A stretch of DNA of 64,000 nt, from contig JAWBXB010000001.1 of assembly GCA_038868075.1 (NCBI GenBank), positions 2,872 to 66,871 of the forward strand, in the 5' to 3' direction. Every line of letters begins with the position of its first letter. Position 1 is the first letter of the stretch. The position numbers were made by a program, and so were the translations under genes. The notes under the pieces were generated by a model. The model did no database searches. It saw only the letters and a program-made list of their open reading frames with translations, and was not told the DNA's origin. Origin of the DNA: Candidatus Bathyarchaeia archaeon. Its GTDB lineage: Archaea > Thermoproteota > Bathyarchaeia > Bathyarchaeales > DTEX01. This document shows positions 7,372 through 34,399 of this stretch, in pieces.

Positions 7372-8328
7372 TTATAGTCCTAGAATTCCCTCTTTAATGG
7401 CTCTATGACTCTCCATTATCGGTGCGGCAGTATTTACCATGCATATTTCTATGAGATTAAATAGATCCCTAAAGAACTTTTTTCTTATTCTTGTTTTACG
7501 CTCATCCCTTACAAGCATGTGAGGGTTGCAGAAGTCAGCTTTCTCTATATAGTTTGATGCTTCCTCAGGTGTGAGTTTTTTGAGAATCGTTTTGTCCTCC
7601 GGATCCCGCTTTAACAATATAGCCTTCCTCAAAGTTGTCATCGGCATAATTTTTCCTTTACCAACAATCCACCTAACGTTTACAATAGCCCTACCCATTG
7701 GATCGAACTCTGCCTTATCAATCAGCTTCTGGTATTCGCCCCAAATATTAGCTATGTCTGCCTGAACATAGAAGTTCTTCTCTGATGCAAACGCTAGGGC
7801 TCTGCCGCCCATTAAACGTGTGAAAAACCAGTCGTCTGAGACAACGCGTATACCCTCAAGCCTTAAGAGACCATATGTATGTGTTGATTTACCAGTTCCT
7901 GGCGGAGCAATTAGGCAGACTCCTAGCCCATCTATGTCTATACATGCTCCATGGACGGAGTTTATACCATGCTCATCCTCAAGTATGTCTCCTGCAACGC
8001 TCAGGGCTATTGATTTAACCCATCCATAATAGTCTACGTTTATCAGGAATGCTGTTTTTGACAGAGGGTCATAAAGCACTTGTAGACTCTCATCAGCCTC
8101 GCTTGTAACGATCAGTCTCCCATGTGAGCGTATGTTTGCGGACATGGGGTAGAAGCTCTCCTCCCAACGCTCCTTAACATACTTTATGTCCGTTAGAAGC
8201 TTGATGCAGCAGCCGTAAATGTCAGCTCTCTCCTCATAGAGGAAGCGGTCACTATACTTCTCCATTAACCTATCTTTATCTTCAATAGAAATCAGCTTAA
8301 CCTCATATTTCAATATGAACCTCTCCAA
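7372..8328 (-). CDS. HPr kinase/phosphorylase C-terminal-domain-like P-loop protein
   Basis: VHGACIDIDGLGVCLIAPPGTGKSTHTYGLL...VVSDDW resembles the HprK-type P-loop core (hHG..h.h.G.GhLl.G.sG.GKS...L...g..lvaDD). Confidence 0.5.
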   Translation of the reverse strand: MERFILKYEVKLISIEDKDRLMEKYSDRFLYEERADIYGCCIKLLTDIKYVKERWEESFYPMSANIRSHGRLIVTSEADESLQVLYDPLSKTAFLINVDYYGWVKSIALSVAGDILEDEHGINSVHGACIDIDGLGVCLIAPPGTGKSTHTYGLLRLEGIRVVSDDWFFTRLMGGRALAFASEKNFYVQADIANIWGEYQKLIDKAEFDPMGRAIVNVRWIVGKGKIMPMTTLRKAILLKRDPEDKTILKKLTPEEASNYIEKADFCNPHMLVRDERKTRIRKKFFRDLFNLIEICMVNTAAPIMESHRAIKEGILGL

Positions 8329-9793: not shown

Positions 9794-9828
9794 ATTTTTC
9801 TTCCATCAACTTATCGTTTCTCTTTATG

Positions 9829-10128
9829 CTAAAACCATTTTGTCAGGTCTTTCCTTAGGATCCTTGGGTTTAGGATTACTTCCAGAAATCTATCCCTTAC
9901 GGGCTCATAAACCTGCTTAAAGAATTTTTGTTGGTTAAGGAGGGTCTCCTTAGGGAAGCCCTTTAGGTATTCTATTGCTGCCTGCCAAGCCCTCTCATAG
10001 CTTACTATGCCAGCGATATGTCCAGCTATCTGCCTATCATAATCCTCAGGCTTCTGCGTCTGATCACCTATAGTAAACCATCCATCCTTAGACACGAAGG
10101 CTACTTCATCACCTATTTGAACAGCCAC
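9829..10128 (-). CDS. Hypothetical 99-aa protein; either translationally coupled to, or the frameshifted C-terminal part of, the upstream AEP-like gene
   Basis: GTG start overlapping the stop of 10113..11111 by 16 nt. Its frame stays open upstream to 10167, i.e. into a G6/C6 homopolymer (10163..10168) where a +/-1 shift would fuse both ORFs. Confidence 0.4.
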   Translation of the reverse strand: MAVQIGDEVAFVSKDGWFTIGDQTQKPEDYDRQIAGHIAGIVSYERAWQAAIEYLKGFPKETLLNQQKFFKQVYEPVRDRFLEVILNPRILRKDLTKWF

Positions 10129-11111
10129 TTCGCTTCCTGAAGCAGATTTAATATCGCTTTCACCCCCCTACCCTTAAGCAGTCTTCTAGAAGCTATCTCC
10201 CTAACATGCTTTTTAGCCCAAGCATAAAATATAGCCCTATTTAACCCAAAGGATTTAGCCCTCTCCAAATCATCGGTTAAAAGATAGTATCTTGCCGCTT
10301 GGAGCAAACCCATAACCTGGAAGCGCCCTATTTTACCACCCTTTAAATCGGCTTCGACGCTTGCCCCCAAGGTTTTCTGGACTGTTACAGATACAGCTGT
10401 CCTTATATGGGTGTTATTGGATGTGCTGAGCCAACCCTTATATCTTCCAACCATTTTTATGGCTTCCGAAGCCGCCTCGTCACCCTCAACATAGATTCTC
10501 CATTCAGTGTTATGTTTGAAGCTATCTGGGTTAGCCCACTCAATTTCAAAGCTATCTATTTCATCAGGCTCAAAGCATACGCAGCAGAGGTTTCTCCTCC
10601 TATGTAATGATAGTGGTGCCGTGAAAACCCTCTTCAAGTCTATTTCATTCTCAACCTTAATGCTATTATACTTTGATATTACATCCAGTATCTTCTCCCT
10701 ACATCTCTCAAGAGCTAAGTCTACTAGGGAGTATGCTACATCGAGAGGGTTATGTTTAGATAGGATTTCGCTTGAGAAGCATCTCTCATGAACATGGACG
10801 TGGGCTCCCTCACTGCTCCATTTAATAAAAACCGACTTAATTATGCCTAGTCGCTCGAGCTCATCAACTATTATCCTAGCAACATTAATAACTCCTTTCC
10901 ATTCATTTAATTCGCCATCAATATCCCATATTGGTGAGGCATAGGCTATATTAGCGGGATCCTCAAGAATGAATCTATTAGACAAATCCTTATAGATATT
11001 TATTGAGCCATAAATAGATCTTGGGTTCACGCCACCGAAATGTTTCAGCATGTCCAAAACATCCTGAGAAGTATTGACAGATAATGGTTTACCGTCCCTC
11101 CAATACCTCAA
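10113..11111 (-). CDS. Divergent archaeo-eukaryotic primase (AEP / PriS-like primase-polymerase) with C-terminal helical domain
   Basis: Motif-by-motif parallel to the bona fide PriS in this window: RSIYGSINIY vs SNVYYSTAYY; PIWDIDGEL vs LFFDIDADH; WSSEGAHVHVH vs FSGHRGYHVQV; IDLKRVFTAPLSLHRRRN vs VDIHRLIRLPGTLHGKTG. Lacks the Zn-knuckle insert. TTG start is uncertain. Confidence 0.65.
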   Translation of the reverse strand: MRYWRDGKPLSVNTSQDVLDMLKHFGGVNPRSIYGSINIYKDLSNRFILEDPANIAYASPIWDIDGELNEWKGVINVARIIVDELERLGIIKSVFIKWSSEGAHVHVHERCFSSEILSKHNPLDVAYSLVDLALERCREKILDVISKYNSIKVENEIDLKRVFTAPLSLHRRRNLCCVCFEPDEIDSFEIEWANPDSFKHNTEWRIYVEGDEAASEAIKMVGRYKGWLSTSNNTHIRTAVSVTVQKTLGASVEADLKGGKIGRFQVMGLLQAARYYLLTDDLERAKSFGLNRAIFYAWAKKHVREIASRRLLKGRGVKAILNLLQEAKWLFK

Positions 11112-11802
11112 AAAACCCTACTACTTAAGGCTCCACCCTCAAGAGCAACCCATCTACCTCTACAGTAATCAGTAATCTCGCACCTAACAACATCACTTAA
11201 ATAATATTCCTCCGAGGGGATTGCACCCCCAACTATCTAAGCACCTAGAGGTAAAAGAAAAACGTAGTGAGACATAAAAATTATCACGGGAAAATATGCA
11301 AAAATACTCCAGAAAAATAAATTAACAGATCCCAGGAAGTAAGATCCCATCAACATTCAATCCCTCTTTATGATAACCAAGAAATTTTTTCACGGAATGA
11401 CAACTGTACTCATCTTCCTCCCCAATTCTCCTATGAGATTCCACTGAAAATTGAAGAAGAATATTATTGGTAAACCACGAGTATGCTGAGACATGAAGGG
11501 GAATCCCATGCATTTTTGGTAAGCATGATTCTAATCGTTTTACCTTTCGCCGAAAATAATCAGCCCTAACATCGTGAGATAGTTGTGATGTTTAAACATG
11601 GAGTTCAACATAATCGAAATATGCTTCTATCCATCCACCACAAGTTTCTATAAATGGTTGAATTAAATGAGTTTTATCCACTTTAATGTTAAATCTTCTC
11701 TCCATGCTTTCTATTATAGGCTTTAAGTCTAAATCTACTTCATGCCATACTCCTAGCTCTATCCCATCACTATCTAAGAACCTTACTGAATAGTAATAAA
11801 GC

Positions 11803-14800
11803 CTTTCAACTTCATATTATTCTCTTTGTGAGATTCCTGAAACCATTGTTGATTGCGCGATGTTTTTACTGATGGATACCTTTCAATTCTCTTTGTGAGA
11901 TTCTATTACTCTGTTTACAAGCTCAATATCATCCTTATCTATATCTACTTTCAATTCTCTTTGTGAGATTCTACGGCTGGCAAAAAGACTTTGTAGGGCT
12001 AAGAAAGGAAGCTTTCAATTCTCTTTGTGAGATTCACACTTATCGGCAAACCGGTTAATCTGAATCATGAAGCTCGCCTCTTTCAATTCTCTTTGTGAGA
12101 TTCAGGGGCAGAACATGCAGTTTCCGCTATGCCCATAAAGCTTGTAGCACTTTCAATTCTCTTTGTGAGATTCCATAACCGAAAGCTTCCGGCTAACCAC
12201 GAAGACAAAATTTACTTTCAATTCTCTTTGTGAGATTCTGAGACCAAAGTTGCCATAAACGAGCTGGCTGAATCAATACTTTCAATTCTCTTTGTGAGAT
12301 TCATCAGCATTCAAATTAAGAGCATAATCTTTAAGGATAGGCTTTCTTTCAATTCTCTTTGTGAGATTCTGGAGAAAAGAATAAGAAGAGATAAGTTTTA
12401 CATCATTATGCTTTCAATTCTCTTTGTGAGATTCCCAGAAGACCTAATTATGAGGATAGATAGGCTGGTTGAGTCCTTTCAATTCTCTTTGTGAGATTCA
12501 AACATTTCCACCCGGCGCAGAGCAGACCTCATAATATTTTCTTTCAATTCTCTTTGTGAGATTCCGTCATGCAGCCGCCAGCTTAGGCTTATATCATCTA
12601 TATCCTTTCAATTCTCTTTGTGAGATTCCGGCCCAACAGCCGCCTGATCCATCTGCAGGTCTTTCTCCCTTTCAATTCTCTTTGTGAGATTCTACGCTTA
12701 CTTTACTGGGGAAACTCTGAGGCAGATTGAGCTTTCAATTCTCTTTGTGAGATTCGTGGCTCCTGAAACAGATTAGAGACACGCCAGGAACATACCACTT
12801 TCAATTCTCTTTGTGAGATTCGTTACAGCTTTGCTATCTCCGATACTGGCTTTCGCTTAGAAGCTTTCAATTCTCTTTGTGAGATTCCATAGCCAACGCT
12901 CCCCACTAAGCTCATACGCAACGCTAACTTTCAATTCTCTTTGTGAGATTCTGAGGAGGGAAAAAAGCATAATGATTGAGAGCGCAAGTATACTTTCAAT
13001 TCTCTTTGTGAGATTCCAAATAATAATCATAGCGAAGAACAGAACCCCCACCCAAACAACTTTCAATTCTCTTTGTGAGATTCTTACGCATGGAAACCTC
13101 GTTCCAAATACCTTTAAGGCCTTTCAATTCTCTTTGTGAGATTCATTATTTGTGATCCACCATACAAGCTTGCAATTCATAGACTTTCAATTCTCTTTGT
13201 GAGATTCCATATTCGATTCTTAATCCCTCAGCCGTCTCCTCAATCCTCTTTCAATTCTCTTTGTGAGATTCCCTTCGGCTTAACTTTAAAGGCTCTTCCA
13301 AAAGTATTCTTTCAATTCTCTTTGTGAGATTCTTAGAGATGTGCCGGGCGCCTATCATGGCAGAATAATCCGTGCTTTCAATTCTCTTTGTGAGATTCCG
13401 TTATATCCCTCACAATATCTCTTGCCACAGCATTCTTCTTTCAATTCTCTTTGTGAGATTCGCACCTATCCCACTTCCTACGGGGGCCGTTATAACCAAG
13501 ATTGCTTTCAATTCTCTTTGTGAGATTCTGCAAAATGGTTTATTCTGATTGGAGGTGGTGAGATTTGGTCTTTCAATTCTCTTTGTGAGATTCCCAAAGC
13601 ATTAACTGCATTGCGAAAGTCCTCATTTGTATTATACCTTTCAATTCTCTTTGTGAGATTCAAGAACACCATACATATTAACAGATAGTTATTTGATAAC
13701 ATTAAATCTTTCAATTCTCTTTGTGAGATTCAGCAAAAAGATGAGTAAGCCGATAGGTAAAGAAGACTTACACATACTTTCAATTCTCTTTGTGAGATTC
13801 AATCCTCATTTGCTTTATAAATTCTAGTGCTTTTTTACTTTCAATTCTCTTTGTGAGATTCAGAGTTCATCGCAGACTCAATCCGCACGCAAATTCTAAT
13901 GTGGAGAACCATAACCACTTTCAATTCTCTTTGTGAGATTCCGGAGACAAGCGCAGCTATAGCGGTTATAACGAGCATGATCTTTCAATTCTCTTTGTGA
14001 GATTCAGCGAAAAGGCTGTTGCTCCGCATGAGACGCCGAAGGCTCCTGCTTTCAATTCTCTTTGTGAGATTCTTGATAGGGATATTTATGAAGCCCTCTG
14101 GAAAATCGTGACTTTCAATTCTCTTTGTGAGATTCAAACTCATCATACGCACTACTTATCAATCTCATACATTCCTTTCAATTCTCTTTGTGAGATTCTG
14201 TGCTGTAGTTCCAGATGATTGCAGGATCCACTGTGGCTGCCTTTCAATTCTCTTTGTGAGATTCTCTGGCAAAGAGGTATACACGTTAGCTTGTTTGTGG
14301 TGTAGGGACGGCTTTCAATTCTCTTTGTGAGATTCCTGACGAGAACTATTACTGCTTGCTCTAATGAAATTTGTTTCGCTTTCAATTCTCTTTGTGAGAT
14401 TCTTAGGGCGAGAATGCCCCGCCAGTCCTCCTCCTTAATCTCTTTTTTATACTTTCAATTCTCTTTGTGAGATTCCTATATGGATATTTTGGTGGAAAAA
14501 TATATAAAGCTTTGTATCCATATACTTTCAATTCTCTTTGTGAGATTCCAGCAATAATGGGAATAGGCGCATTATGTTTATGTGTAGCATTCTTTCAATT
14601 CTCTTTGTGAGATTCCAATTAAGGGATTAGTTTGGCTATTATTAGCAAACTTCTGGACTTTCAATTCTCTTTGTGAGATTCGTAAATGTTCGGTTGAATA
14701 ATAATTTTAATCCAGTTTTAATCTTTCAATTCTCTTTGTGAGATTCCCTTTTGTTTCCATCCTTTTTCACCCAGACGAAAAATCGCTTTCAATTCTCTTT

Positions 14801-14876
14801 GTGAGATTCTAAAAGAGGCCGATTGTTATGCTGCTTTTGACTACATTAGAAACTTTCAATTCTCTTTGTGAGATTC
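11803..14876 (-). CRISPR. CRISPR array: 46 identical 24-nt repeats (CTTTCAATTCTCTTTGTGAGATTC as written on +), one degenerate terminal repeat at 11803..11836, and 46 unique spacers of 37-56 nt
   Basis: All repeats were located by hand (first perfect repeat 11880..11903, last 14853..14876) and the spacer lengths sum correctly. Reverse complement GAATCTCACAAAGAGAATTGAAAG ends in ATTGAAAG (canonical 8-nt crRNA 5' handle) and has a TCTC/GAGA mini-stem. The degenerate repeat lies at the low-coordinate end, so transcription is inferred on the minus strand with the leader at 14877+. Confidence 0.97.
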
Positions 14877-15082
14877 CGAGGGTTTTTCTTGCTCCGTTTA
14901 CTTATCTGGGCATTTTTTGTATTTAAGTTTTGTGGTGTTGTTTCGGTGGTTGCTGATCTGCATTCAGGGTATGTGTTTCCACCGAAGCGCAGTGGAAAAA
15001 ATATAGTGAGTCGGTGTTTCCATTGGAGAATTGGTTATGTTTTTATTTTTTGGTTGTGGAGTCAATAGATTAAAAAGTTGGT
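14877..15082 (-). promoter_or_regulatory. Putative CRISPR leader and divergent promoter region shared with the DUF5131-like gene
   Basis: Non-coding stretch next to the newest repeat. On the minus strand, BRE/TATA-like ACAAAACTTAAATAC (TATA core 14927..14919) lies about 45 nt upstream of the first repeat. Direct repeat GTGTTTCCA at 14973..14981 and 15014..15022. Inverted repeat TTTCCAC(14976..14982)-N9-GTGGAAA(14992..14998). Palindromic TCCATTGGA at 15019..15027. Confidence 0.5.
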
Positions 15083-15109
15083 TTGAGCATAGTTATTCTT
15101 TGGAGGTTA

Positions 15110-15796
15110 ATGGTGGTTGCTGGTAAGAGGTTTGGTGAAATAGACTGGTCTTGGAATCCGATAACTGGCTGCCTTCACAACTGCAATTACTGTTGGTCTA
15201 GGATGTTCTCTAGGAGGCTTGCTTCCATGAGCGTTGAGCCCTATAAAACTCATGGTTTTAATCCCGCCTTCGCTGAGTGGAGGCTTAGGCAGAGGATTCC
15301 TGATGGAAAATTTATTTTTGTTTCAGATATGGGTGATATGTGGGGCGATTGGGTTCCAGGGGAGTGGATTGAAAGCGTTTTAAGGGTTGTTAGATCTAAG
15401 CCTAAATCAAAATTCTTCTTTCTAACAAAGAACCCAAAGAGATATTTGGAGTTTGAGGATAAATTTAGCGAGAACGTTGTTTTAGGAGTAACCTTGGAGA
15501 CTAATAGGGATTATAAATTGAGTAGGGCGCCCACTCCAAGAGAGAGATATGAGGCTATGATTAAGCTTAACTGGAAGTGGAAAGCTATCGTTATTGAGCC
15601 AATCCTAGACTTCGATGAGGAATTCATAGACTGGATATATAATATATCGCCAGAAATAGTCTACGTAGGCTACGATAATTATGGAAACAATCTTCCAGAA
15701 CCTAAGCTCGCCAAAACACTAATACTTCTAGAAGCCTTAAGGGGCATAATCGACCTAAGACCTAAAACAATAAGGAAAGCATGGAATGAACCATAA
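15110..15796 (+). CDS. Phage Gp37/Gp68 (DUF5131)-family protein with radical-SAM-type CX3CX2C motif
   Basis: IDWSWNPITGCLHNCNYCWSRM resembles the family N-terminus (iewt..tWNPvtGC...C..CYa). ATG at 15110 is preceded by GGAGG (15103..15107); the track ORF starts at a TTG at 15083. Confidence 0.6.
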   Translation: MVVAGKRFGEIDWSWNPITGCLHNCNYCWSRMFSRRLASMSVEPYKTHGFNPAFAEWRLRQRIPDGKFIFVSDMGDMWGDWVPGEWIESVLRVVRSKPKSKFFFLTKNPKRYLEFEDKFSENVVLGVTLETNRDYKLSRAPTPRERYEAMIKLNWKWKAIVIEPILDFDEEFIDWIYNISPEIVYVGYDNYGNNLPEPKLAKTLILLEALRGIIDLRPKTIRKAWNEP

Positions 15797-15808
15797 TTAA
15801 TTATTAGA

Positions 15809-16882
15809 TCAGCATATTCTTGGAACCGGATCACCTAGGGGTCTTGGAATAATCCTCCTCCCACCAATATATGTCTGCATGGCAACACCACTAAACTCAT
15901 CTGTCACCTCACCTATTATCTCAGCATCTTTACCCTCACTAGTCCCCCTAAGAAATTCCAGGGCTTCCTCAGCCTTCTCCCTAACAACGCCAATAACAAC
16001 TTTACCCTCATTACCAATCTCAAGCGGATCTAAGCCCAGCATCTCACATGCAGCCTTAACAGGCTCCTTAATTGGAATCTTATCCTCATAAATAATTATT
16101 CCCCTCCTAGACTTCTCACTAAACTCATTTAAGGCATCAGCCAAGCCGCCACGTGTAGGATCCTTCATGGCTACGACCCCACCGACCTCATCCAGTAAAC
16201 GCTGAATTAACTTATTTAATGGCTTAACATCAGACTTTATCTCACCGCTTAAACCTAAACCCTCCTGGGCTAACAGAACAGATATTCCATGATCACCTAT
16301 TGTACCCGAAAGAATTATTTTATCTCCAACATTCAGATTCGAGTCCATTAACCATCGGGCATTGAAACTTGCCCTATACCTTCTCACAACACTAATATTT
16401 TTATCTAGGGCAGGTGTCCTCACACCTATACCCGAAGTGTTTATTACGCATCCACCTAGAGCACCCTTCTCAACAACCTTCGTGTCACCAGTAACAATTG
16501 GAACATTAGCCTCAAGGCACGTCTCCCTAATACTCCTCAATATGCGCTCTAAATCAGTTAGCGGTAACCCTTCCTCCAAAATTAATCCACATGTCAAAGC
16601 TATTGGTTCAGCGCCCATAACAGCAATATCATTAACTGTTCCCGAAACAGCTAAGCGACCTATATCTCCGCCCGGAAAAAATATTGGCTTAACAACATGT
16701 GAATCGCTCTTTAAGACAATATCTCTGACAACTGCAGCATCATCTAAGGCTTTAAGTGGAACCTCAAAATTTTCTTCGTCAAGATCGCTGAAAAACCTCA
16801 AAATATACTTTTTGATAAAGTCATGCATAACTGAGCCGCCAGCCCCATAGAGCATTGTTACATACCCACTTTCAACACTCAT
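15809..16882 (-). CDS. hypE: Hydrogenase maturation protein HypE
   Basis: PurM-like fold signature and the diagnostic C-terminus ...GDPVPRIC. Confidence 0.95.
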   Translation of the reverse strand: MSVESGYVTMLYGAGGSVMHDFIKKYILRFFSDLDEENFEVPLKALDDAAVVRDIVLKSDSHVVKPIFFPGGDIGRLAVSGTVNDIAVMGAEPIALTCGLILEEGLPLTDLERILRSIRETCLEANVPIVTGDTKVVEKGALGGCVINTSGIGVRTPALDKNISVVRRYRASFNARWLMDSNLNVGDKIILSGTIGDHGISVLLAQEGLGLSGEIKSDVKPLNKLIQRLLDEVGGVVAMKDPTRGGLADALNEFSEKSRRGIIIYEDKIPIKEPVKAACEMLGLDPLEIGNEGKVVIGVVREKAEEALEFLRGTSEGKDAEIIGEVTDEFSGVAMQTYIGGRRIIPRPLGDPVPRIC

Positions 16883-33310: not shown

Positions 33311-34399
33311 CTAAATTCTTCTTTCAATAAGATATTCAGTGAGAATCTTAACCTTTTCTTTCGCCTCCGAATCTGGGAGAATCTCGTTAATAATCCTCCA
33401 GCCCTCGCTTACAAGTTTTGATGCCACTTCTCTAGCATATTCGATAGCACCATACTTCTTAATTATCTCAATAGCTCTCATTCTAAGCTTCTCATCCCTG
33501 GTATGCATGCTAAGTATCTTCAGTAGCTCCTCCCTATCCTTTTGATCCGCTTTTCGGAATGAATGAATGACCATTAAAGTTAGTTTCCCCTCAGTTATGT
33601 CCATCCCTAAGCCACCCTTACCCTTAGCGAACTCTTCACCAACAATATCCAATATGTCATCTTGAATCTGAAATGCTATACCTATGGATTCGGCGAAAAA
33701 ACCTATTTTCTCAACAACCTCATCATCTGCGCCAGCCAATACTGCAGCCATTTTAGCAGCCAATCTAGCCAATGTCCCAGTTTTATAAGCGCACATCTGC
33801 AGGTAATGACCCTCAGTCAGCTTCTCAGCCTCAATAAGCCCTCTATGCCACGCTATATCAATAGCCTGCCCAAAGCTTAAATTAATCATCTCCTGCACAT
33901 ATATCTCATAAATTCTTCTAGCCCTATCAGGCGGAATTTTATCACGCTTCTCACTTAAAACTATCATCGGTAGAAAGAACATGGCTTGTGAGAGATTTAC
34001 GGCTATATCAACACCAAATATCTTGTATGTGCACGGTTTACCCCTTCTCATCTCTGACGAATCCTCAATATCATCAGCTATTAATGTGCCATTATGAATA
34101 ATCTCAGGTATTATAGCGAAGTCCAATATCTCCGTAGGGTCGCCGCCTAAAGCCTCATAAAGCAGCAAGAAAAGAGCTGGACGCCAGCGCTTACCACCCC
34201 TATCAAGAAACTCCCACAGCGGCTCATTCACAGTCTTATTTAATGCTTCAAAATCTAAACGGTATCTTGGCGGAATAATTTTGAAGAGAAAAGATTCATC
34301 TGAGAAAAGTCGAGGTATATACTTCTCGATATGCTCATTTATTAACTTAGCCTTCTCCTCAAGAAAACCCTCTATATCTATTTGACTCATACCTATCAC
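33311..34399 (-). CDS. Polyprenyl (geranylgeranyl) diphosphate synthase
   Basis: First and second Asp-rich motifs: LIADDIEDSSEMRRG and FQIQDDILD. Confidence 0.85.
   Translation of the reverse strand: MIGMSQIDIEGFLEEKAKLINEHIEKYIPRLFSDESFLFKIIPPRYRLDFEALNKTVNEPLWEFLDRGGKRWRPALFLLLYEALGGDPTEILDFAIIPEIIHNGTLIADDIEDSSEMRRGKPCTYKIFGVDIAVNLSQAMFFLPMIVLSEKRDKIPPDRARRIYEIYVQEMINLSFGQAIDIAWHRGLIEAEKLTEGHYLQMCAYKTGTLARLAAKMAAVLAGADDEVVEKIGFFAESIGIAFQIQDDILDIVGEEFAKGKGGLGMDITEGKLTLMVIHSFRKADQKDREELLKILSMHTRDEKLRMRAIEIIKKYGAIEYAREVASKLVSEGWRIINEILPDSEAKEKVKILTEYLIERRI

Follow-up and report, generated by a model that had tools for sequence, protein, structure and literature searches.

A CRISPR array with no cas genes around it is probably a remote member of a type I-A system with several arrays in a Bathyarchaeia genome from a hot spring

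The closest described relatives of the array discussed here are the CRISPR loci of the Thermoproteales. The study of Pyrobaculum covered 37 arrays in six species, with small RNAs sequenced in four, and described CRISPR RNAs (crRNAs) carrying an 8-base handle together with a promoter element for CRISPR loci, AAAAACTTAAAAA, that is ultra-conserved (Bernick et al. 2012, PMC3396285). Among metagenome-assembled genomes (MAGs) of Bathyarchaeia, type I-A systems and multi-spacer arrays have already been reported, as have mini-arrays in viruses, with 1 and 3 spacers and a repeat taken from the host, for which Cas proteins encoded elsewhere are discussed (PMC10541130). Here we analyse a CRISPR array that lies in a stretch of 64,000 nucleotides (the window, G000:C1:2872-66871) of a hot-spring Bathyarchaeia genome, assembled to 1.58 Mb in 41 contigs (97.4% complete, guanine-plus-cytosine (GC) content 0.40). 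A first reading, made from the window's sequence only, had found the array without cas genes and left two possibilities, a remote array served in trans or a stranded one. The evidence favours the first, since the same repeat, the same leader and a cas cassette are all found on another contig, C8. With a probability of about 85%, we read the window array as a functional remote array of a four-array type I-A system, served in trans by the C8 cassette. This reading rests on four facts: the repeat of the C8 array is identical, the leader is conserved, the cassette is full-length and present in a single copy, and the C8 array has recently gained spacers. Most likely, then, the array is not stranded and reflects the ordinary multi-array layout of thermophilic archaea; its "cas-less" appearance is an artefact of viewing one 64-kb window.

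The window array resembles those of Pyrobaculum and other Thermoproteales in several respects. Its repeat is likewise 24 nt long, with the layout GAAT-CTC-(5-nt core)-GAG-N-ATTGAAAG and a predicted 8-nt handle; its leader contains a conserved, A-rich, promoter-like CTTAAA box, CTTAAATA, that resembles AAAAACTTAAAAA; and the genome has several arrays, scattered away from the cas genes. It differs in that the host is a Bathyarchaeia MAG and in that the crRNAs are here predicted from sequence alone. The nearest Rfam family is CRISPR-DR45 (RF01354; consensus CUUUCAAUCCUCUUUUUGAGAUUC), which differs from our repeat at 2 of 24 positions; the match scores 29.3 bits (E = 0.005) and falls short of the family's gathering cut-off of 37, so that the repeat is a neighbour of DR45 rather than a member. 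The crenarchaeal kinship proposed for this repeat holds in substance, but its nearest relatives are Thermoproteales and not, as proposed, Sulfolobales. We consider that the window array most likely belongs to a well-known kind, the remote array in a type I-A system that has several arrays.

The repeat, CTTTCAATTCTCTTTGTGAGATTC, occurs in 46 exact copies at window positions 11880-14876, and not once in 100 shuffled sequences. On the minus strand, to which the array is assigned from the position of its leader, it reads GAATCTCACAAAGAGAATTGAAAG (GAAUCUCACAAAGAGAAUUGAAAG as RNA), and the 46 copies enclose 45 spacers. A decayed 47th repeat occupies the trailer end (11803..11836, minus strand) and consists of CTTTCAA, 10 extra nucleotides and then an intact 17 nt, TTCTCTTTGTGAGATTC. 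Between it and the first intact repeat lies the oldest spacer, of 43 nt (11837..11879, minus strand), bringing the number of spacers to 46 (37-56 nt, mean 42.1), with no duplicates inside the array. The description of the array in the first reading is correct, and the locus has what defines a CRISPR array: identical, spaced repeats and unique spacers of similar length, with a leader on one flank and a degenerate repeat on the opposite one. The TCTC/GAGA stem noted before as a mini-hairpin is present in the repeat, but its fold (-3 kcal/mol, z = -1.15) is not significant alone. The recurrent repeat variant among the other genomes of the genus falls in the loop of this hairpin (repeat position 16, which is G, T or A). 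In the C8 array the repeat nearest the leader (L011 6666-6689) carries such a change, a G-to-T that turns TTTGT into TTTTT, and this TTTTT form is the dominant one in congeners G007, G011 and G017.

Across the assembly the repeat was found 125 times. The genome search proposed in the first reading returned, in addition to the window array (14684-17747 of contig C1, 46 intact repeats and the decayed one), three further arrays and one cas cassette. The C8 array (13523-16689) lies beside the cassette and has 48 repeats, 46 of them identical to the consensus; the C26 array (94-1849) has 27 repeats and is cut by the contig end; the C6 array (33735-33955) has 4. Together the four arrays hold about 122 spacers. 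When up to 2 mismatches are allowed, the repeat also turns up in 15 of the 22 other genomes that belong to the genus and, outside the genus, in 1 of 18.

The four arrays of the genome share a leader. That of the window array lies at 14877..15030 on the minus strand (far end approximate), and alignment of eight leaders from three species shows it to be conserved in all eight arrays. It is 99% identical over 106 nt to the C6 leader, 92% identical to the C26 leader over the 93 nt left before the contig end, and 87% identical over 152 nt to the leader of the cas-adjacent C8 array; identity to four leaders in the congeneric species G007 and G011 is 82-91%. Three blocks stand out in the alignment (all given on the minus strand). 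The first, GCAAGAAAAACCCTCG (14877..14892), forms the leader-repeat junction: within it GCAAGAAAAA followed by CTCG directly abuts the first repeat and is invariant in 8 of 8 leaders, and it is likely the anchor for spacer integration. The second is the TATA-like box CTTAAATA (14920..14927), which lies 43 nt upstream of the first repeat, is equally invariant (8/8) and would be a promoter element. The third, GCAACCACCGAA (14942..14953), likewise invariant, contributes one arm to an 8-bp inverted repeat whose partner, TTCGGTGG, lies further upstream. This inverted repeat (TTCGGTGG ... CCACCGAA, 14942-14985) folds as a hairpin, with one arm invariant in all eight leaders, and might serve to bind a regulator or an integration host factor.

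Since the shared leader is on the 14877 side and the decayed repeat at the far end, the window array is read on the minus strand. The C8 array, whose terminal repeat is also degenerate at the same end, has the same polarity, with the decayed repeat opposite the leader in both. The orientation given in the sequence-only reading is therefore borne out by the leader of all four arrays. The handle predicted there is also the one predicted here: the minus-strand repeat is expected to give crRNAs with the 8-nt 5' handle ATTGAAAG (AUUGAAAG as RNA).

Profile searches located one type I-A cassette in the assembly, at G000:C8:16843-27460, adjoining the 48-repeat array. It contains the adaptation genes Cas4, Cas2, Cas1 and Csa1, the effector genes Cas3'' (HD), Cas3' (helicase), Cas8a2/Csa4, Cas5a, Cas7/Csa2 and a weak Cas11a/Csa5, and in addition Csa3, a CARF regulator, and Cas6, which is divergently oriented. 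Cas4, Cas2, Cas1, Csa1, Cas3', Cas7/Csa2 and Cas5a were all over their curated cut-offs, and profile coverage was near full length for Cas1, Cas2, Cas4, Csa1, Cas3', Cas5a, Cas7 and Cas8a2; matches to Cas3'' HD, Cas11a and Cas6 were partial or weak. The adaptation proteins scored 215 (Cas1), 50.3 (Cas2), 116.3 (Cas4) and 231.1 bits (Csa1). Among the effector proteins, Cas7/Csa2 matched TIGR02583 with 227.5 bits (cut-off 212.6), Cas5a matched TIGR01874 with 69.9 (cut-off 23.05), Cas3' matched TIGR01587 with 173.7 (cut-off 102.45), and Cas8a2/Csa4 matched PF09703 with 66.5 (cut-off 25) and the PADLOC Cas8a model with 79.5. Cas6 (320 aa, C8:26498-27460) was identified with PF10040 (54.8 bits, cut-off 25) and PADLOC models; PF01881 (Cas6_C) had no match genome-wide.

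The cassette thus has the signature genes of type I-A (Cas8a, and Csa5/Cas11a, the latter weakly, with Cas7/Csa2 and Cas5a), the split of Cas3 into helicase and HD proteins, and an adaptation module with Cas6, all on C8 beside an array of identical repeat. Cas7/Csa2, Cas5a, Cas8a2/Csa4, the Cas3'/Cas3'' split, Csa1, Cas4, Cas1, Cas2, Csa3 and Cas6 are all shared with the type I-A systems of Sulfolobales, Thermoproteus and Pyrococcus. The statement that the 64-kb window has no cas genes was correct: none was found in the window or elsewhere on contig C1. Among the ten open reading frames (ORFs) flanking the array no Cas protein was recognised, the window ORFs not having each been individually run against Pfam. 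Genome-wide searches with profiles for Cas1, Cas6_C, RAMP, DevR/Cas7, Cmr2 and Csm1 gave matches on C8 alone (Cas1 and Cas7/DevR) or none, and tblastn of all 12 proteins of the C8 cassette against the assembly returned C8 only, with no second copy and nothing on C1. An orphan array would lack matching cas genes in its genome; this genome has them.

The effectors predicted to lie elsewhere were of type I-A or type III with Cas6, and of these Cas6 and type I-A are on C8. For type III, which would show itself by Cas10 and RAMP subunits, PF03787 (RAMP), TIGR02577 (Cmr2) and TIGR02578 (Csm1) had no match in the 97.4%-complete assembly, while the same searches did give matches in control genomes. 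In this the genome is unlike most Sulfolobales: no co-resident type III system was detected. These nulls bear on the idea that a second effector, for example a type III system in an unassembled part of the genome, is supplied by the array in addition to type I-A or in its place. The incompleteness of the assembly and its division into 41 contigs leave room for such a system, and in Sulfolobus and Pyrococcus type I-A and type III complexes alike are served by repeats that end in ATTGAAAG. Some Bathyarchaeia MAGs, moreover, hold both type I and type III (PMC10541130). Given the absence of matches here and their presence in the controls, we regard a second effector as very improbable.

In the reading we prefer, service in trans from C8, transcription would start within the leader, at a point downstream of the CTTAAATA box, and would follow the minus strand from 14876 toward 11803. 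Cas6 would cut 8 nt from the 3' end of each repeat, yielding crRNAs with the 5' AUUGAAAG handle, and these would join a type I-A complex of Cas7/Csa2, Cas5a, Cas8a2/Csa4, the probable Cas11a/Csa5, Cas3' and Cas3''. The loaded complex would then target invader DNA, while Cas1, Cas2, Cas4 and Csa1 would insert new spacers beside the leader by recognising the conserved leader-repeat junction.

That spacers are being added in this system can be seen in the C8 array. Two metagenome contigs, Ga0209080_1009919 and Ga0105162_1001432, carry the same array, with spacers 1-42 equal to those of this genome; at the leader end both have 3 other spacers where this genome has 5. Differing leader-end spacers over a common older core are the standard signature of recent uptake, and the adaptation machinery has therefore been recently active at the C8 array. 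The two contigs also show the same population, sampled elsewhere, with a diverged C8 leader end. Newly added repeats are copies of the leader-proximal repeat. In the C26 array, a one-base variant (handle ATTGAAAT) occupies all 24 repeats nearest the leader, and the consensus ATTGAAAG is retained by the 3 oldest, a distribution that fits such first-repeat copying in the course of continued uptake. The ATTGAAAT handle variant is also found in G011:C45, and the last base of the handle seems to tolerate a change from G to T. Two pairs of spacers overlap between arrays: C1 spacer 31 and C8 spacer 34 over 20-22 nt, on opposite strands, and C8 spacer 30 and C26 spacer 13 over 23 nt, with 1 mismatch. 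These overlaps indicate that the arrays sampled the same invaders.

Searches for the targets proposed in the first reading were negative. The whole window array had no blastn match in phage and plasmid collections, and eight spacer cores (20-27 nt) had none among IMG/VR viral contigs. One 20-nt core gave 6 matches among metagenome contigs, of which 4 were chance 20-mers; the other 2 were the C8 array itself and no protospacer. In the 22 other genomes of the genus, the search for shared spacers or protospacers gave repeat-driven alignments alone. As to self-targets in the host, no spacer matched at full length outside the arrays, where chance matches of 16-20 nt were all that was seen; this counts in favour of an active system.

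Several points weigh against service in trans from C8. The assembly is in 41 contigs, and the C1 array and the cassette are on separate ones. The 305-aa Cas3'' HD protein is below the Pfam and NCBIfam cut-offs and is called from a match of 40 bits to PADLOC Cas3a2. Two further points also set the cassette apart from the type I-A systems of Sulfolobales, Thermoproteus and Pyrococcus: Csa5/Cas11a is here weakly recognisable (a 130-aa ORF, PADLOC E = 0.002), and Cas6 is long, at 320 aa, and a sequence search found it no relative among solved structures. The evidence of spacer turnover concerns the C8 array and not that of the window. No protospacer, and hence no target or protospacer-adjacent motif (PAM), was found in the phage, plasmid, IMG/VR and metagenome searches; type I-A interference with DNA is PAM-dependent, the motif being CCN in Sulfolobus. 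Finally, the perfect identity of the window repeats could stem from the youth of the insertion in which the array lies (described below) instead of from use. It had been taken before as a sign of recent activity or purifying maintenance, and the second part of that claim is not required: since the leader-proximal repeat is the template for each new one and the array is in a young insertion, such identity need not mean purifying selection.

The array is located within a hydrogenase-maturation cluster, with HypF and HypD on one side and DUF5131, a HypE-like protein and an Mrp/NUBPL ATPase on the other. In four congeners (G006, G013, G015 and G020) hypD, DUF5131 and hypE are directly adjacent, with no array between them, and we therefore consider the segment between hypD and DUF5131, about 5.3 kb at 9794..15055 (right boundary approximate), a lineage-specific insertion. 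Besides the array and its leader it contains a primase-like pseudogene and a stretch of about 690 bp in which no genes are recognisable. Its GC content is 0.389, against 0.435 and 0.404 in the flanks, and its borders show no direct repeat of at least 8 bp and no integrase. Leader similarity ends no more than a few tens of bases from the right border.

The young age of this insertion is what lends some weight to the possibility that the array is stranded, that is, that array and leader moved recently into the hyp cluster and are no longer transcribed or extended, their perfect repeats reflecting recency. The absence of the array from this site in the four congeners agrees with it, as does the lack of any spacer target in the collections searched. 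Yet the leader has kept the TATA-like box, the junction with the first repeat and every other block that is invariant over the eight leaders of three species, and the genome has a matching, intact cassette with Cas6. No spacer of the window array is held in full by any other array of the genome, so it is not a dead duplicate of one of them, and one of its spacers overlaps a protospacer that was sampled by the C8 array too. We therefore judge stranding to be decidedly unlikely.

The primase-like (AEP) gene lies beside the trailer, in two frames (99 aa and 332 aa) at 9829..11111 on the minus strand. It had no match to cas or defence profiles, and it has a paralog on contig C9 with 39.6% identity. 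In relatives, genes of this family are chromosomal and have no array beside them. The stretch between it and the array (11112-11802) yielded no remnant of a cas gene; over roughly its first 100 nt (11112-11210) it matches relatives' copies of the primase-like gene at their 5' end.

A pseudogene of this kind next to the array, in a lineage-specific insertion of slightly lower GC content than its flanks, could also be seen as the remnant of an integrated plasmid or virus, one that carried a primase-like gene and an array of host repeats and exploited the host Cas proteins in competition between elements. Bathyarchaeia viruses with mini-arrays of host repeats have indeed been described (PMC10541130). 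Those mini-arrays, however, have 1 and 3 spacers, whereas the array described here is chromosomal, with 46 spacers and a full host-type leader that shares 99% identity with the leader of the chromosomal C6 array. The insertion, as noted, has neither an integrase nor direct repeats of 8 bp or more at its borders; the family of its primase-like gene is chromosomal in relatives, with no adjoining array; and the array is without match in phage or plasmid collections. An origin in a mobile element thus appears highly improbable.

A different suggestion concerns how arrays multiply. Because the border of the insertion is near the end of the leader, no spacer is shared with the sister arrays and a primase-like gene is part of the insert, leader and array might travel as a discrete module, moved to a new site by an element or by leader-bounded transposition and then filled in trans. 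We hold this to be unlikely; if true, it would give archaeal genomes a specific way of multiplying their CRISPR arrays. Placing the array as a lineage-specific insertion in a hydrogenase-maturation cluster could in any case aid the study of array multiplication and, when hot-spring viromes become available, the linking of Bathyarchaeia viruses to their hosts.

Identification of the window array as a probable remote array served from C8 matters little beyond annotation. Of modest worth are the description, for a thermophilic genus of Bathyarchaeia, of a complete type I-A system whose repeat and leader promoter are like those of Thermoproteales, and the evidence from a natural population for continuing spacer uptake in this system.

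The ten ORFs around the array encode, on one side, HypF, a metzincin-like protein, an HprK-like protein and HypD, plus two ORFs without family match, and, for the rest, DUF5131, the HypE-like protein (of the AIR-synthase family), an ORF without match and the Mrp/NUBPL ATPase. The DUF5131 (Gp37/Gp68-like) gene, beside the leader at 15083..15796 on the plus strand, is outside the insertion and part of the conserved hypD-hypE neighbourhood. It matches the PADLOC candidate defence profiles PDC-M30B and PDC-M41B (E about 1e-22). Since several congeners keep this gene between hypD and hypE, its role may lie in housekeeping, as a partner of the hyp genes, and not in defence.

The C6 mini-array (L014 about 7640-8060) has 4 repeats, 3 spacers and the leader almost identical to that of the window, and its trailer end is some 90 nt from an apparent tRNA-gene 3' end (GGTTCAAATCC...CCA). 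tRNA genes are typical integration sites of mobile elements. A solitary perfect repeat is found on contig C4 (122039-122062), in a single copy without leader or spacers, 566 bp from the contig end. Outside this genome, JAWAJB010000015.1, from a MAG labelled Desulfurococcaceae, encodes a Cas6 78% identical to ours and has a 38-repeat array with a one-mismatch repeat, CTTTCAATTCTCTTTATGAGATTC, which suggests either a mislabelled bin or the transfer of a CRISPR locus. Other close Cas6 loci are in MAGs labelled Candidatus Bathyarchaeota.

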